47,248 bases of DNA from a virus. Taxonomy: Duplodnaviria; Heunggongvirae; Uroviricota; Caudoviricetes. Shown here one piece after another: positions 1,630 to 42,502 of this stretch. The notes below the pieces were generated by a model. That model saw only the letters and a program-made list of their open reading frames with translations. It was not told the DNA's origin and made no database searches. The stretch lies in the IMG/VR virus record IMGVR_UViG_2711768052_000011. One strand, given 5' to 3'. Position 1 is the stretch's first letter. Each line of letters begins with the position of its first letter. The position numbers and the translations under genes are program-made.

Positions 1630-2202
1630 TTACTCAACGTCAAGCGCTCGAATTGAAACCAAATCATCCAGGCCGCTCAACCTCTCTTTCATCTCCCGCT
1701 GGCGACGATAAATTTCGTCGTTGCGATCGACCTGCGCCTGCGCCATTGCTGCAGCCAGTTCTTCCAGTTCCGGCATCGACAGTTTCACCTGTTGATTATC
1801 GGCGTCACCCCACGTCAGAGCGGTTCGTGCTGTATCGAATTTCGCAGCCATTACCACCGGATAAAGACGGGCCAGCGAATCAGGGCCAGCATTCCAGGTG
1901 TGGTCGTTCCATTCGAACGTGAACGGCTTCGCCTCCTGCTCTGTACGCCACGCTTCGATTTCCCGCTTTTTGGCATCTTTCGCTACGGTGATAAGTTCAG
2001 GTGTTATGGTGAACGGGGCGATTTCACCCCATTTGCCACTCTGCAGTTCCTCCCAGATTTGCTGGCCTGTCGTTTCAGTGTCTTCTTGTGTGGCTGTATA
2101 GGGAATGGGAGCCTCCATCCCTTCAAATAAAACCTCACAGTCAATTGCGCCACTTTCAAGATAGCGGGCATTTCCTATTTTTTTTATTTCCATAAAATTC
2201 AC
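1630..2202 (-). CDS. tfa: tail fibre assembly protein (Tfa chaperone)
   Basis: 190-aa ORF directly downstream of and abutting tail-fibre gene; size and position typical of Tfa family. Confidence 0.8.
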   Translation of the reverse strand: MNFMEIKKIGNARYLESGAIDCEVLFEGMEAPIPYTATQEDTETTGQQIWEELQSGKWGEIAPFTITPELITVAKDAKKREIEAWRTEQEAKPFTFEWNDHTWNAGPDSLARLYPVVMAAKFDTARTALTWGDADNQQVKLSMPELEELAAAMAQAQVDRNDEIYRRQREMKERLSGLDDLVSIRALDVE

Positions 2203-3975
2203 CTAATAAACCCGGATAAATAGACCAATCATGATGCCATCAGAACCCACACTCCCCAGCCGTGAGCCCGACAACGCCCGGTATGTCCCCGAAAACGCAC
2301 CGCCTGCATACACAGAAATATCGCTGGTTTGTTGAATCGCGGGGTAGTCTGTTATCCCGACACACTTAAACTCAATAATCATAAGACGTGAGCCGGGATA
2401 CAGGTCACCACGATTTATCTGACGATTTGAATCTGAGCTGTAAGTTCCCTTGTACCCCGCCAGTACAAGACTGCCAATACCGTATCCGTCATATGTCGTT
2501 CCGGGGGTAATCCCGGACAGCGTAGCGACAACGGACGACGGCGTGTATTTCAGGGATTCCCACTCCATCAGTTTGCCAGTGGGCGAGTACCAATTCACAT
2601 GAACGCCACCATTAACACCGTAGAAAATAATATTTTTAGGTTGTTTTTCTGCTTCACCACTGGTATCGGCACTCGTCCAGATGACGTCCACAACACCAAT
2701 AAATAGTTCCCCCTCTATTACGACCCCGTTCTCCGGCCTCGTACTCACGGCATAACGTCCGGGGAGAGCGTTTTTTGCCCACGAGAGGAACATTGACCCT
2801 GACTGAAAATACACTCTGTCTTTGACAGTAAATATTTTCCCGAATCCGGACATGCCGGGGACAGCAAGACGACCGTCTGTGCAGTCGTAAATATCTGCCT
2901 GTGGTTCCATCGTGGCCGCGCTTTTTAGCCCCAGATTATCACGTGACTCCTGTTGTGCTTGTTCACCTGCTGCCGCAATCTCTGACAGATTACCGGACGT
3001 TTTCAGGGTGTTCGTCAGCAGGACATCAATGTCGTTTTTTGCCTGCTCAGCTGCGCGGGCATAACCTGCGGCTACCCGTGCGCTCTGTTCAGATGAGGCC
3101 GCGCTTTCCCCCGCACTTTTCACATCTTCCGCAGTGGCCTTTCTGTCACAGGCTGTGGCCGTTGCATCCTGTCTGGCGTTCTCCGCAAAGCGCTCAGCAT
3201 CATCACGTGCTGCTGCGGTTACCATCACATCCTGTGCGGTCTGCAGTGTGTTTCCTGCAACATTATCGGCGTGACTTTTCGCGTTTTGCGCACTTCGGGC
3301 TGCATTATCAGCGTGACTTTTTGCGCTCTGTTCGCTTCGGGCAGCGTTATCCGCATTGTTTTTTGATTCCTCTGCGCTGGATGCAGAATCATCTGCTGCC
3401 TGTTGAGCCTGCTTTACTGCATCTGTAACACTCTGCACACCCTGTTGCATCTGTCCGGCATTCTGCTCAACTTCTGCAGCCAGATGTTCAACGTGTTGTT
3501 TATCTTCGGCAACCGCGGTGGCGTTCAGCTGTACGTTATCCTCCAGCGTCTGACAGTCTTCCTTTATCTTCTGCGCATCAGCGACATGTTGCCCGGCCTG
3601 TTGTTCGCTTTCCGCTGCGGATTCGGCGCTCTGCTGCGCCTGTGCCACCATTCTCTCAAAGCGTTTCACCACGTCGGGTTTGAGGTCGCCTTCATCGGGA
3701 GCGGTCAGAAAGTCGTTCAGCGTGCCGGGCTTTGCGTCATCGTATACAGCAATGTCGCCAACACAGTACTCGTCGCGCCAGCCCTGTTTCAGATACACGC
3801 GATATTTTCCGGTCCGGGCCTCAAACGAATACTCCCCGTTATTTCCGGTCACCACATCAGCTTCAGTGCGCATCACCACTTCTGATGTGTTCACCCGGGA
3901 TTTCAGAATAATGTGGCATCCGGACATGGGGATGCCTGCGCCATCAGTCAGCGCACCATAAATTAAAACGGACAT
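2203..3975 (-). CDS. side tail fibre protein (Stf-like), second fibre
   Basis: 591 aa from internal Met MSVLIYGALTDGAG (ORF-track frame); conserved phage fibre N-terminal domain (GTLNDFL motif), Ala/Gln-rich shaft, distinct C-terminal domain; followed by tfa. Confidence 0.8.
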   Translation of the reverse strand: MSVLIYGALTDGAGIPMSGCHIILKSRVNTSEVVMRTEADVVTGNNGEYSFEARTGKYRVYLKQGWRDEYCVGDIAVYDDAKPGTLNDFLTAPDEGDLKPDVVKRFERMVAQAQQSAESAAESEQQAGQHVADAQKIKEDCQTLEDNVQLNATAVAEDKQHVEHLAAEVEQNAGQMQQGVQSVTDAVKQAQQAADDSASSAEESKNNADNAARSEQSAKSHADNAARSAQNAKSHADNVAGNTLQTAQDVMVTAAARDDAERFAENARQDATATACDRKATAEDVKSAGESAASSEQSARVAAGYARAAEQAKNDIDVLLTNTLKTSGNLSEIAAAGEQAQQESRDNLGLKSAATMEPQADIYDCTDGRLAVPGMSGFGKIFTVKDRVYFQSGSMFLSWAKNALPGRYAVSTRPENGVVIEGELFIGVVDVIWTSADTSGEAEKQPKNIIFYGVNGGVHVNWYSPTGKLMEWESLKYTPSSVVATLSGITPGTTYDGYGIGSLVLAGYKGTYSSDSNRQINRGDLYPGSRLMIIEFKCVGITDYPAIQQTSDISVYAGGAFSGTYRALSGSRLGSVGSDGIMIGLFIRVY

Positions 3976-30631: not shown

Positions 30632-30680
<49 letters not shown>

Positions 30681-30833
30681 TGCTCTATCCGGATGAGCTA
30701 GTGACGGTTTTATTGCCACATCCGTAACAACAGTCGACAGGAATAATATACATTCAGAATCAGCCGCCTTAGCTAATTGTGCAACCATCTGCTCTTTGCA
30801 AGTGCACTTAACGTCCTGCGCCACTTTTCAGGC

Positions 30834-34199: not shown

Positions 34200-34355
34200 T
34201 TACTCCTCAGGTTCGTAAGCTGTGAAGACAGCGACCTCCGTCTGGCCGGTTCGGATTCGTACCTCGCAGAGGTCTTTCCTCGTTACCAGTGCCGTCACTA
34301 TGACGGTTAAACAGATGACGATCAGGGCGATTAACATCGCCTTTTGCTGCTTCAT
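34200..34355 (-). CDS. hokD: Hok/Gef-family membrane toxin
   Basis: 51-aa product MKQQKAMLIALIVICLTVIVTALVTRKDLCEVRIRTGQTEVAVFTAYEPEE matches E. coli HokD (RelF) by recall; AAGGAG RBS. Confidence 0.85.
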   Translation of the reverse strand: MKQQKAMLIALIVICLTVIVTALVTRKDLCEVRIRTGQTEVAVFTAYEPEE

Positions 34356-34566
34356 AGCCTGCTTCTCCTTGCCTTTCGGCACGTAAGAGGCTAACCTAGA
34401 TTTGCCGTTCATAGATTGAGCCTCAGATTAATGTTAAGCGTCTTGCAGGACGCGTAATGTTAACTGGGGCTTTTCTCTATCTGCCTTTGGTGTTCATGCC
34501 TGAGACAGATAGCCTCAAGCACCCGCAGCCATTCTACTTAACTCCCGTTACCTCGCCAATATAAAA

Positions 34567-34656: not shown

Positions 34657-34970
34657 GACAACCTCCTGTATTGGACGTACACCAGTCCTGATAAATATGA
34701 GGCTGTCTCATCATTGATGAGATACAACTATTGGGTATAGTTTCTGTGATTTTGTTCTGTAGAAATGGAACACAACAACCAGTCTCCACCAGCACTTCTT
34801 TAAATACGCCAAGTCCGACGCAAGCTAACCTTCTAGTCCGCTTTGAGCGAACTGTGGAAGCTCGCAAATGTTGTTACATCTGATGAAGGCATTACTCAAA
34901 GGAGGGGATAGTAGTCAACGTGGAGCAGGCCATGTTAGTATTTTTATACAATTCGACTAAGGGAAAAACA

Positions 34971-35840
34971 ATGAGGCTTTACATAATAGGAAATGGATTT
35001 GACATGCGTCATGGCTTACCAACAGGATACAAGCACTTTAAGTCGTATGTAGAAAAAAATGACCAAGATCTATATGACGCGATAGAAGAATACATTCCTG
35101 CTGGGGACGAGTGGAATGAGTTAGAAAATGCTTTAGGTGAAATTGATTATGAGCTTATCCTTCAAAACAGTGAGATATTTTTGGCTTCATACAATACCGA
35201 TGATTGGAGCGATGCTTATCATCACGATTACCAATATGAAGTAAATAAAATCACACAAATGCTGTCAGCTCGTTTGAAGGAGCAATTCGCTGATTGGGTT
35301 AAAGGGATTAACATAGCCGATGCTTACAATCCTAAGCAATACATCCCGCCCATACCAAGAGAAAGCATCTATTTTTCATTTAATTATACAAATACCTTGC
35401 AGCAGATCTATGCCGTTCCAGACGAGCAAATCATACATATTCACGGAAATTGTAGTTACGATGACGATCTCATACTTGGTCATAGTTTTAGGGTGGAAAA
35501 GTCACTAAATCCATATATAGGACCGGATCAAGATACAAGAATAGCAGAGGCATACGACAGAATAAACGAATACTTCGGTAATACATTCAAGCCCAGCGAA
35601 GACATAATTAAAGAAGAAAACGTTTTTTTCTCATCGCTTAAAAATGTGGACGAGGTCATCGTTTTAGGCCACTCGCTCGCCGAAGTTGACGGTGAATACT
35701 TTACTGAAATAAATAAAAGCATCCAAGAAAATGCTCGATGGATAGTTGCTTTATATAGAGGTGAGAAAAAATCAGGCAGTTTAGAAGATTATGGTATCAG
35801 AGGCTCAAATATTTCTTACGTACAGTATGAAGATATCTGA
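34971..35840 (+). CDS. AbiH-like abortive-infection protein
   Basis: N-terminus MRLYIIGNGFDMRHGLPTGYKHF matches AbiH-family hallmark; AT-rich; ORF track begins at GTG 34920 with AAGGAGG upstream. Confidence 0.6.
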   Translation: MRLYIIGNGFDMRHGLPTGYKHFKSYVEKNDQDLYDAIEEYIPAGDEWNELENALGEIDYELILQNSEIFLASYNTDDWSDAYHHDYQYEVNKITQMLSARLKEQFADWVKGINIADAYNPKQYIPPIPRESIYFSFNYTNTLQQIYAVPDEQIIHIHGNCSYDDDLILGHSFRVEKSLNPYIGPDQDTRIAEAYDRINEYFGNTFKPSEDIIKEENVFFSSLKNVDEVIVLGHSLAEVDGEYFTEINKSIQENARWIVALYRGEKKSGSLEDYGIRGSNISYVQYEDI

Positions 35841-35923
35841 ATGAGACTTCATATTATAACTATAATTATGTAAAAAAGGCTGGTATTTTATACCTTGAGG
35901 AAAATAGATAAGAGGAATGAGGT

Positions 35924-37321
35924 TTGGTTATGATGAATTATACTGATGAGTCAACTTTTCTTGAAAAGTACAAACCGTTTAGGAAGTTTTGGACAATTTT
36001 ATCACCTCATTATGTATCTTTAATGCATGCACTTGCCAAAATGATAAGGGGAGGGAATCCAATTCAAGAACTACCTTCCAATGATGAGGATTTTCTTGCA
36101 GAGTATGAAACCTGTCTCAAAAATTGGAAAGACTCACAAAAAATCATATCTTTTGAGATTATTATTCGGCTGAGAGATATAAAAAGATTGGAAACTGAAA
36201 AAAAAGAGCACCATCGAAACAAGGATAAAGAAAATAAAGAAAAGTGTATTAATGAAATAAGTTTAAAAAAATTTGAAATTCTTATTCTTCGCCGTTGTAT
36301 TGACTCAATAATTTGGAGCATTCTTGATGAAGAACACTCTAGTTTGCGGCGTTTACCTATTAATGCAAGCAATGACAATCTATCAGAAGATAACATAATT
36401 GATTCTATGGTCGCAGCCGATCTTATCAACCAGGACAAACACTCCGTAGCGATTGTCTCTGACATGAGCACATTTGTTCATGTGGGAGATTTAGTCACCT
36501 TTAATCTACTGGATGGCTTCCAGCTCGTGGAAGTTAAAACAGGTGAAAAGAATAATGAGCTTTATGAAGCTGCTGAATTTTCTGTTATCTCAGAATGTCC
36601 GCACTTTGAAGAAAACTTCATTAACAATATGCCTGATAATGATGTTAAGCAATTTAATCGCATAAAAAGGCAAATCATTCGTGGCATGAATGTTCTGGAG
36701 GCGATTAATACTGGCGAGGGCTTTGACAACTTTCATCAGTCTAAAGTTAAAATCAATGAGATAGATCATCCGTCTGAATTTTATACCCACCGCTTAGTTA
36801 AAATGTGGGAGATTATTCGCGGAGGAAAAAATTGGGCAATTGATACTATTGATGAATGTTTGTTCTTAGGTATGTACCGTGATTCTGAAATGGGCTTTGT
36901 TGCCTTCAATGGATGGATGGATAGTCTCGGTATAAAAAGCCCTGTTGTGAATATAAATGATTCATTCTTTGACCCTTTGTCTCGACCATTTATGAGTTTG
37001 CATCTGCCAACTGAAATGCTCTCCGATCTCATGTCGGGACAAATAATCATCGTCATGTGTTTTGACAATGAACTTTTTTTTCACCGTGCTAACAAAACGT
37101 ACCCGGGTTTATATCTCCTTAGCGATGCAGCAAGAACAAAGCAGCCATTAGAAAATATTCTTCGTGTTGGTTCACAAGGGATAGCTTCTTACGTAGATGG
37201 GAATACCAGCTTTTTAGGTAATGGTATTGAATCCCGTATCCTTTTCGATCAGCAACGACCCGACAACATTATTGAGTGGAGCTATGCTAGAAGCGATCTC
37301 AAAAAGCAACATGAAGCATAA
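35924..37321 (+). CDS. uncharacterised 465-aa partner protein, possible PD-(D/E)xK-like motif
   Basis: Co-oriented 83 nt downstream of AbiH-like gene; TTG/ATG start region with GAGG SD; charged coiled-coil-like stretch; VGDLV ... LVEVK motif. Confidence 0.55.
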   Translation: MVMMNYTDESTFLEKYKPFRKFWTILSPHYVSLMHALAKMIRGGNPIQELPSNDEDFLAEYETCLKNWKDSQKIISFEIIIRLRDIKRLETEKKEHHRNKDKENKEKCINEISLKKFEILILRRCIDSIIWSILDEEHSSLRRLPINASNDNLSEDNIIDSMVAADLINQDKHSVAIVSDMSTFVHVGDLVTFNLLDGFQLVEVKTGEKNNELYEAAEFSVISECPHFEENFINNMPDNDVKQFNRIKRQIIRGMNVLEAINTGEGFDNFHQSKVKINEIDHPSEFYTHRLVKMWEIIRGGKNWAIDTIDECLFLGMYRDSEMGFVAFNGWMDSLGIKSPVVNINDSFFDPLSRPFMSLHLPTEMLSDLMSGQIIIVMCFDNELFFHRANKTYPGLYLLSDAARTKQPLENILRVGSQGIASYVDGNTSFLGNGIESRILFDQQRPDNIIEWSYARSDLKKQHEA

Positions 37322-37583
37322 GCCGTTGGATGGGATTTCCCATGAATTGCCATGGATAATCTAGACACTTCGAGCCGTTGATAATGTTGATTTTCGTATT
37401 CTGTCGGTGGAGTATCCCGAAAGGTATAGAGCAAAACCTGGAGAAAACACACAGCATCCCATTTTAATCTTTAACTCTGACCTTCCATAATGTCCGCTGT
37501 TGGCACAAAGCGGACAACCACGCTAGCTCTACCCTGTGCCACAAAATGTCAATTTGCATCTGAACTAATGCACTTTAATCTCG

Positions 37584-38006
37584 TCACTTCAATAAATACC
37601 GAACATCCCCCTGATAAAACGACAATATGCGCTGCATAACCTCACTCTTCCGGCACTCGCGACAGATTATGTTCAGGTGCCTGTCGTAGCGGCGTATTTC
37701 TCCGTCTGGTAACGACCAGATAAAGTCCGGATCAACTACAGATGTTTTCTTCAGCTTTGCTCTCGAGAGTTTTTTGCGGGCGTTTTGCCAGTCCTTACGA
37801 GCCTGTTCTGACGGGAATAACCCATAGCCAGAGTTGTATACATCCCCACTGGCAACCAGCTCTCTGGCCAGAACGTTCATCAGATATCTTGTTGCCCCAG
37901 TTTTAGTTTCCAGTTGTCTTAACGTCTCGCGCCCACTCTGGCGTACAAGTTCAACAACCTGCCCTTTAATTTTTTCCCGCTCTTCTTGTGTAAATACTTT
38001 TGCCAC
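37584..38006 (-). CDS. hypothetical phage early protein
   Basis: 140 aa, GTG start with AGGAGG SD, last gene of minus-strand early operon; C-terminal CxxC. Confidence 0.5.
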   Translation of the reverse strand: MAKVFTQEEREKIKGQVVELVRQSGRETLRQLETKTGATRYLMNVLARELVASGDVYNSGYGLFPSEQARKDWQNARKKLSRAKLKKTSVVDPDFIWSLPDGEIRRYDRHLNIICRECRKSEVMQRILSFYQGDVRYLLK

Positions 38007-42444: not shown

Positions 42445-42502
42445 TTTCTGGTGACGTTTGGCGGTATCAGTTTTACTCCGTGACTGCTCTGCCGCCCTTT
42501 TT
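42445..42502 (+). ncRNA. dicF: DicF small RNA (cell-division inhibitor sRNA) with intrinsic terminator
   Basis: TTTCTGGTGACGTTTGGCGGTATCAGTTTTACTCCGTGACTGCTCTGCCGCCCTTTTT matches K-12 DicF by recall; GGCGG/CCGCC stem plus T5. Confidence 0.75.

Follow-up and report, generated by a model that had tools for sequence, protein, structure and literature searches.

The window analysed here, that is, the whole 47,248-nucleotide (nt) stretch of IMG/VR record IMGVR_UViG_2711768052_000011, is a lambdoid prophage of the Qin/Rac type from Escherichia coli, and the subject of this text is a two-gene cassette that it carries between hokD and the minus-strand replication genes. Two co-oriented plus-strand open reading frames (ORFs) are present there, gene 1 at 34920-35840 and gene 2 at 35924-37321, as an earlier sequence-only reading of this DNA had described; that reading suggested that the two might be the components of a single abortive-infection module, an AbiH protein and its partner. 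We favor a different organization, to which we give a probability of roughly 0.55, in which the slot carries two separable defence genes: a known AbiH, and a gene 2 that belongs to an undescribed candidate family with a nuclease-type core.

Gene 1 (plus strand) encodes an AbiH-family abortive-infection protein of 289 amino acids (aa), counted from its likely start at ATG 34971. Two other possible starts lie upstream (GTG 34920 and ATG 34932), and ATG 34971 is favored because it yields the length annotated for the plasmid homologues and because the Pfam model begins at residue 3 of the resulting protein. The N-terminus MRLYIIGNGFD was confirmed in the sequence, and profile comparisons bear out the family that the earlier reading had recognized: residues 3-259 match Pfam PF14253 over model positions 1-258 of 260 (233.3 bits for a cut-off of 30.9, E = 6.6e-69), the PADLOC AbiH model is matched in three stretches (E = 1.3e-27), phrog_19951 is matched at E = 5.5e-181, and the RefSeq name of the protein is “AbiH family protein.” Judged by its sequence, gene 1 is a true full-length AbiH, and as such a newly seen member of a known family. 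It also contains a series of short motifs, GNGFD (34989-35003), FNYT (35379-35390), HIHG (35436-35447) and LGHSL (35664-35678), all on the plus strand, which follow one another as in sirtuins; this correspondence to the known SIR2 motifs is our own reading, and a phmmer search of gene 1 against PDB sequences returned no sirtuin and no match of any kind.

Defence catalogues list AbiH as a single-gene system, and PADLOC has one AbiH protein model. According to a 2026 review (PMC13064643), AbiH resembles sirtuins and may act by depletion of nicotinamide adenine dinucleotide (NAD+), a mechanism that is unproven, and that review cites the cloning of the lactococcal AbiH as a single gene (Prevots, 1996). 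On the basis of this literature, gene 1 is most likely an autonomous single-gene abortive-infection effector, sirtuin-like and perhaps an NADase, which would kill or arrest the infected cell through NAD+ consumption upon the sensing of a superinfecting phage.

Gene 2 (plus strand), our candidate for a single-gene defence protein, is the member of an unannotated family. Its likely start is ATG 35930, favored because RefSeq calls the same 463-aa protein and the protein collection contains an identical sequence. The database name is “hypothetical protein” everywhere, and the earlier statement that no family could be assigned to it stands: gene 2 had no match in Pfam, PADLOC, NCBIfam, PHROGs or PDB sequences. 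A word-indexed protein search returned 42 clusters only, all from Enterobacterales and Aeromonas. With a gene 2 profile searched against 1.84 billion representatives, the family comprises 723 representatives of 50%-identity clusters (E <= 1e-3), of which 214 reach E <= 1e-30. Nearly all of these proteins are 430-490 aa long and match end to end, and beyond Klebsiella and Salmonella, in which gene 2 is also known, the range of the family includes Pseudomonas, Spirochaetia, Opitutaceae, Myxococcota, Dechloromonas and Bacillus cereus. Ten distant members, including forms of ~680 aa, had no match in Pfam or PADLOC. The ~680-aa members (P0156, P0158, P0167 and P0170) carry an N-terminal extension of ~240 aa, itself with no Pfam match, and the gene for one of them (P0156; L040, 6001-8037) has a 4-nt overlap with the stop of a SRAP-domain gene, and genes for ImuB/DnaE2-like error-prone polymerases are nearby. 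The family was not found in the literature searched, nor was there an accession match in the DefensePredictor supplements, which were partly searchable.

Beyond the E. coli prophage, the AbiH-gene 2 pair was found on four IncFIB plasmids (Enterobacter, Klebsiella and Raoultella), each time as one block corresponding to 34934-37343 with 93% nucleotide identity, spacer included. Both genes are under purifying selection, with a ratio of non-synonymous to synonymous substitution rates (dN/dS) against the plasmid copy of 0.23 for gene 1 and 0.21 for gene 2, and their synonymous divergence from this copy is nearly equal (dS of 0.183 and 0.188, respectively). The pairing amounts to a single evolutionary event. 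Each gene is otherwise found without the other. Providencia plasmids share 34840-35857 only, i.e., AbiH alone (90% nucleotide and about 91% aa identity); the homology stops 17 nt past the AbiH stop codon, and in about 20 of these plasmids an unrelated 484-aa ORF lies downstream. A 51%-identical AbiH stands alone in the ligase-phoH slot of phage-plasmid-like IncFIB plasmids of Klebsiella, with no co-oriented partner. As for gene 2, its homologues (23-61% identity) lack AbiH in every context examined other than the shared cassette, at least 16 of these contexts have no AbiH, Abi_2 or reverse transcriptase (RT) neighbour, and an all-against-all BLASTP of 15 neighbour proteins of gene 2 homologues revealed no common partner.

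Taken together, the module edges, the restriction of the pair to a single cassette and the gene 2 homologues that lack AbiH establish that AbiH and gene 2 are evolutionarily separable, and suggest two autonomous defence genes that travel together. The two-component module of the sequence-only reading is thus not supported: the pair is confined to one ~93%-identical cassette, and homologues of the two genes come close to never co-occurring. The downstream Providencia ORF was also considered as a hidden relative of gene 2; the 484-aa ORF of P. huaxiensis plasmid NZ_CP145919.1 (L029, 5181-6635) has no Pfam match and no gene 2 similarity, and an hhalign probability of <1% ruled this candidate out.

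The genomic surroundings of gene 2 homologues were compared at about 20 loci, which make up a context sample and not a genome-wide statistic; a related-locus search with a closer gene 2 alignment returned 7 loci. Within the sample, gene 2 recurs in variable prophage and plasmid slots and beside known defence genes. In one P2-like prophage, a homologue separates gpU from the tail fibre genes, others directly follow the integrase gene with which 186/P2-like prophages end (Klebsiella/Enterobacter and Pantoea), and a 28%-identical member adjoins the portal gene gpQ of a P2-like prophage. The P2 defence hotspot lies between gpA and gpQ (Rousset et al., 2022, PMC9122126), and the main text of that article has 0 occurrences of AbiH and likewise no gene 2. 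Among plasmids, one homologue is inserted within a conjugative tra region, another is carried by a small Mob plasmid, and others are on plasmids of Rahnella and Ewingella. An Aeromonas homologue is found beside AAA_15/AAA_21 ATPase and UvrD helicase genes, which we take to be Gabija-like, and a pPIWI-associated nuclease (pP_pnuc), and a further homologue is beside HicAB and AbiTii. The neighbours are unrelated in Pseudomonas, Spirochaetia, Opitutaceae and Myxococcota, and some members are in non-defence surroundings, e.g., after an aconitase gene or by SRAP and ImuB/DnaE2-like repair genes.

In some of the settings, a recognizable gene lies upstream. On Pantoea/Erwinia plasmids, an Abi_2 (PF07751) gene precedes a 55%-identical gene 2 by ~17-18 nt (4918-5982 in L002, L003 and L004; 3878-4948 in L022), and this pair is beside a Tn3-type resolvase and arsenic resistance genes. 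On the B. cereus plasmid NZ_CP129006.1 (L016, 3060-6166), a homologue of 26% identity, annotated as three fragments (frameshift or assembly error), follows an RVT_1 reverse transcriptase gene after a gap of 35 nt and adjoins genes of an ABC-three-component system. Finally, in a Spirochaetia metagenome-assembled genome (OY759746.1; L025, 3824-4579), a gene 2 homologue of 30% identity is preceded by the gene for a NucS_C/YhcG-like PD-(D/E)xK nuclease (E = 4e-7).

The organization of the gene 2 protein was deduced from an AlphaFold2 model built from 24 homologues (predicted local distance difference test, pLDDT, of 85; predicted template modelling score, pTM, of 0.85), with residue numbers counted from the MNY at 35933. 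This model predicts the following architecture: a long, charged, coiled-coil-like antiparallel helical hairpin (residues 51-130, 36083-36322; helices 51-95 and 99-130), which ends in a conserved RRxxDxxxW128 and is followed by a disordered linker; a conserved core (residues 171-260, 36443-36712), with a candidate PD-(D/E)xK-type site on a beta-beta-beta-alpha unit; and a C-terminal alpha/beta domain (residues 262-462, 36716-37318), with conserved P352 and P443 and an R-x3-D element. The elements of the core region in the model are a helix (152-165), three strands (171-175, 187-191 and 195-199), a helix at 205-220 and helices within 205-260.

Conservation is concentrated on a small set of residues. 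D177, D186, E200, K202, G204, R243 and Q247 show no variation among 103 diverse core sequences, and the same seven, together with W128 and P443, are invariant in 40 homologues with identity down to 20%. In a 148-sequence alignment, the residues conserved at >=90% are W128, D177, D186, E200, K202, G204, N207, R243, Q247, P352 and P443. Among the core positions, the codons were checked on the plus strand for D177 (36461-36463), D186 (36488-36490), E200 (36530-36532), K202 (36536-36538) and Q247 (36671-36673). The VGDLV...LVEVK element, which had been noticed from the letters as possibly PD-(D/E)xK-like, is present and holds the most conserved feature of the family, D...ExK. In the model, D186 immediately precedes the second strand and E200-x-K202 comes where the third one ends, with a spacing of 14 residues between D186 and E200; the core has an acidic residue at the start of beta2 and a (D/E)-x-K on beta3, and this predicted placement is like the arrangement of PD-(D/E)xK nucleases. 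That earlier suggestion is upheld as far as the motif goes, with D186, E200 and K202 invariant in all 103 cores, and went unconfirmed by fold and profile searches.

The core regions of 103 diverse gene 2 members were then scanned singly against family libraries at permissive thresholds. The most frequent family among the sub-threshold Pfam matches was SduA_C (7 of the 103 members; E from 0.0023, the best, to 0.04), with NERD and PDDEXK_10 each found for 2 cores, and SduA_C was the sole repeated Pfam match for full-length members. Sub-threshold matches in NCBIfam were most often, or jointly most often, to YraN-type PD-(D/E)xK models (3 and 2 members). The repeated matches in both libraries correspond to PD-(D/E)xK nuclease families. 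Nothing recurred in the PADLOC scan of the 103 cores, in which SduA matched a single one. When gene 2 was aligned to a NucS-like protein by hhalign, D186 and the ExK fell in register with the nuclease motifs in an alignment that was not itself significant. A PD-(D/E)xK-type nuclease is hence a plausible identity for the gene 2 core, with a chance that we would place slightly above even, and gene 2 belongs neither to Shedu nor to any other named family.

Several observations weigh against reading the locus as two separable defence genes, one of them with a nuclease-type core. The sub-threshold Pfam and NCBIfam matches cover 2-7% of gene 2 members, profile searches of PDB sequences, including one with a hidden Markov model (HMM) of the core, gave no significant match, and hhalign comparisons with E. 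coli YraN (a single sequence and a shallow alignment) and with the NucS-like protein were not significant. The absence of a defence-HMM match for the family refers to a PADLOC-DB that dates from 2023, and a later description is possible. Moreover, gene 2 is directly downstream of a co-oriented Abi-type gene in three lineages (AbiH, Abi_2 and reverse transcriptase), which could reflect either ordinary clustering or an optional functional coupling, and unannotated neighbours are often present in the “solo” contexts, where they could be unrecognised partners.

Among the alternatives, the one that survives best concerns the biochemistry of gene 2, and we hold it to be a serious possibility that falls somewhat short of an even chance: the D-D-ExK-Q core might belong to a new fold and serve to bind a ligand or a protein, with gene 2 acting through another effector route, e.g., oligomerisation of the hairpin, or membrane or protein targeting. 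Consistent with this, fold searches with the gene 2 model confirmed no nuclease and gave no structural match to a solved one, and no recognised PD-(D/E)xK member family was matched significantly by gene 2, whether by sequence or by profile. However, the invariant set is an acidic-acidic-Glu-x-Lys series with 14-residue spacing, and follows the layout of PD-(D/E)xK enzymes, in which an alpha-beta unit likewise precedes the residues on beta2 and beta3; the families matched repeatedly below threshold in the two independent libraries are PD-(D/E)xK nucleases only; and the weak hhalign comparison aligns D186 and the ExK with NucS-like motifs. We therefore retain a nuclease-type core as the preferred reading of gene 2.

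A broader proposal, which we advance tentatively and to which we give somewhat less than an even chance, is the following. Gene 2 might found an undescribed and widespread single-gene anti-phage family (at least 723 clusters at 50% identity, ranging from Proteobacteria to Spirochaetes, Verrucomicrobia, Myxococcota and Bacillus), whose architecture of hairpin, D-D-ExK-Q core and alpha/beta domain lacks a detectable relative in Pfam, PADLOC, NCBIfam and the solved structures, and whose members may in some lineages also serve as plug-in partners behind unrelated Abi effectors, such as the SIR2-like AbiH, the HEPN Abi_2 or an RT. A stronger form of coupling, namely a true two-gene Abi system in which AbiH is the SIR2-like effector and gene 2 a sensor, regulator or second effector that is portable to Abi_2 (HEPN) or an RT, seems unlikely to us. 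It draws on the arrangement of the two genes, which are co-oriented and separated by an 89-nt spacer (35841-35929, plus strand), with a purine-rich ribosome-binding region (GAGGAATGAGG) before gene 2 and, according to a terminator scan, no terminator-like hairpin between them; under either reading they are probably co-transcribed. Promoter and terminator scans gave counts at or below shuffled expectation and nothing firm on transcription. The movement of the pair as one block between the lambdoid prophage and the IncFIB plasmids, with equal dS, also fits a two-gene system, as do the short distances at which gene 2 homologues follow Abi_2 in Pantoea and Erwinia and the RVT_1 gene in B. cereus. 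Yet AbiH at 91% identity has a different downstream gene and the 51%-identical AbiH is alone, at least 16 gene 2 contexts are devoid of an AbiH, Abi_2 or RT neighbour with no neighbour repeated among them, and AbiH itself is represented by a single model in PADLOC and was cloned from lactococci as one gene (Prevots, 1996, as cited in PMC13064643). Two separable genes remain the better description of the cassette.

It is similarly improbable, in our view, that gene 2 has no immune role and merely shares a moron slot with AbiH, as an accessory mobile-element protein that serves, for example, as a nuclease in recombination or repair, in anti-defence or exclusion, or in addiction or maintenance. 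While no defence-family HMM matches any gene 2 member, some members have the aconitase or the SRAP and ImuB/DnaE2-like surroundings mentioned above, and cargo slots also hold non-defence morons, e.g., an acetyltransferase in phage Evi, gene 2 is repeatedly encountered at defence-type sites (the P2 gpA-gpQ hotspot, after int, and by Gabija-like genes, HicAB/AbiTii, AbiH and Abi_2). In addition, gene 2 is distributed patchily across phyla, has moved horizontally and is in every case a lone cargo gene, and its absence from 50,697 phage genome records searched by tblastn argues against a core phage function.

Within the preferred reading of two separable defence genes, gene 2 would act as an autonomous single-gene anti-phage protein, a role suggested by its conservation, topology and genomic habit. 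Its core would attack the nucleic acid of the phage or the host as a PD-(D/E)xK-type nuclease that depends on metal, and the hairpin and/or the C-terminal domain would hold this core inactive, or else mediate oligomerisation and sensing. The AbiH of this locus is ordinary, in that it carries a family annotation and its prophage cargo slot is of a known kind, and the value of the locus lies in gene 2, which offers a clonable E. coli entry point to a large family that is nameless in the curated libraries searched. Gene 2 has the genomic habits of an immune gene, and its candidate active-site residues (D177, D186, E200, K202 and Q247) are already located. If gene 2 protects against phages, it would constitute a new single-gene system, and hundreds of clusters of “hypothetical proteins” would gain a better annotation. 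The locus would then also represent a natural test of whether neighbouring defence genes (AbiH and gene 2 here, Abi_2 and gene 2 elsewhere) act independently or in synergy.

The cassette occupies a variable cargo slot of the lambdoid prophage (34851-37487), between the hokD/sok module and the DUF977 and replication genes. The left neighbour is hokD/mokD (34200-34412, minus strand), with a sok RNA over the hokD/mokD leader at 34350-34524 (full Rfam match, 110 bits), and the right neighbour is the DUF977 gene (37584-38006, minus strand), followed by a replication gene that is also on the minus strand; the orientation of the cassette is opposite to that of the surrounding early genes. In a near-identical locus of EC21Z-063, the annotated order is ydfU (DUF968), a hypothetical gene, hokD, AbiH, a second hypothetical gene, DUF977, replication, YdaT-like, two HTH genes and ydfA, with dicB further on. 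By blastn, phages Tritos and Evi share the left flank as far as 34850 and the right flank from 37488/37489 onwards, and because these two phages hold other cargo in between, 34851-37487 can be considered a replaceable slot. In Evi, this slot contains the acetyltransferase and a regulator, in HannyBb other small genes, and in K-12 Qin the genes beside hokD are relE-relB-ydfV-flxA, in line with the earlier placement of the cassette at the relBE position of Qin. In Tritos (OV696610.1), the slot content is a single plus-strand hypothetical ORF of 444 aa (2158-3492 of the extracted locus), an uncharacterised cargo; this ORF was evaluated as a hidden gene 2 family member and ruled out (hhalign probability of 0.3%).

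The composition of the cassette is likewise distinct, and AT-rich as first noticed: its GC content is 0.367 (34920-37321), vs. 0.509 for the whole window and 0.48 and 0.47 for the 5-kb flanks, which is the minimum among all 2.4-kb windows of the 47 kb (mean 0.511, standard deviation 0.051). The identical cassette was detected at full length in 65 of 5,426 complete E. coli genomes (about 1%), and the full cassette was not found in the 50,697 phage genome records. Overall, the slot content is a 2.6-kb AT-rich, horizontally acquired cassette, i.e., foreign prophage cargo, and in its behaviour the slot beside hokD in Qin/Rac-type prophages is comparable to the defence hotspots of P2 and P4. An imperfect inverted repeat of 36 nt (75% complementary; 34823-34858 and 37493-37528) lies exactly at both edges of the slot, within the flanks shared with other phages, and could have arisen by chance, or could mark a boundary of the hotspot or serve in recombination there. 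Elsewhere in the window, Rfam matches include the small RNA DicF (42446-42497, plus strand, 76.7 bits) and a partial tRNA-like match in the late region (30643-30700, minus strand, 48.5 bits, model positions 8-63 of 71).

Among known systems, Thoeris (ThsA/ThsB) and SIR2-HerA are similar to the cassette in that a sirtuin-like protein and a second protein are encoded in one co-oriented unit. In those systems the partners co-occur systematically, whereas those of the window are separable, and gene 2 is unlike any of their components. Gene 1 is comparable to the AbiH of Lactococcus lactis through its full-length match to the family model, well over the cut-off, its motif order, which is consistent with the sirtuin resemblance reported for AbiH, and its carriage by a mobile element, but its lineage, that of enterobacterial prophages and plasmids, is remote from the lactococcal protein. 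In terms of location, the cassette resembles the cargo of the P2 old/tin locus (PMC9122126) and of the Qin relBE/hokD hotspot, in that it lies in the hokD-side slot where Qin has relBE and related phages have other cargo; the lambdoid hokD-proximal slot is, however, a different one from the P2 and P4 hotspots characterised in that study. For gene 2, the nearest analogy is Shedu, a single-gene defence whose protein, SduA, has a PD-(D/E)xK nuclease domain at its C-terminus (SduA_C, PF14082). The gene 2 of the window differs from it in having no SduA_C/DUF4263 match above threshold in Pfam or PADLOC, whereas in both the gene travels as lone cargo in varying surroundings, is found in defence islands or prophages and encodes a D...ExK core, and SduA_C is the most frequent sub-threshold Pfam match among the gene 2 cores. 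By this analogy, gene 2 is of a type already familiar from Shedu, that of a lone nuclease-like defence gene in mobile-element hotspots.

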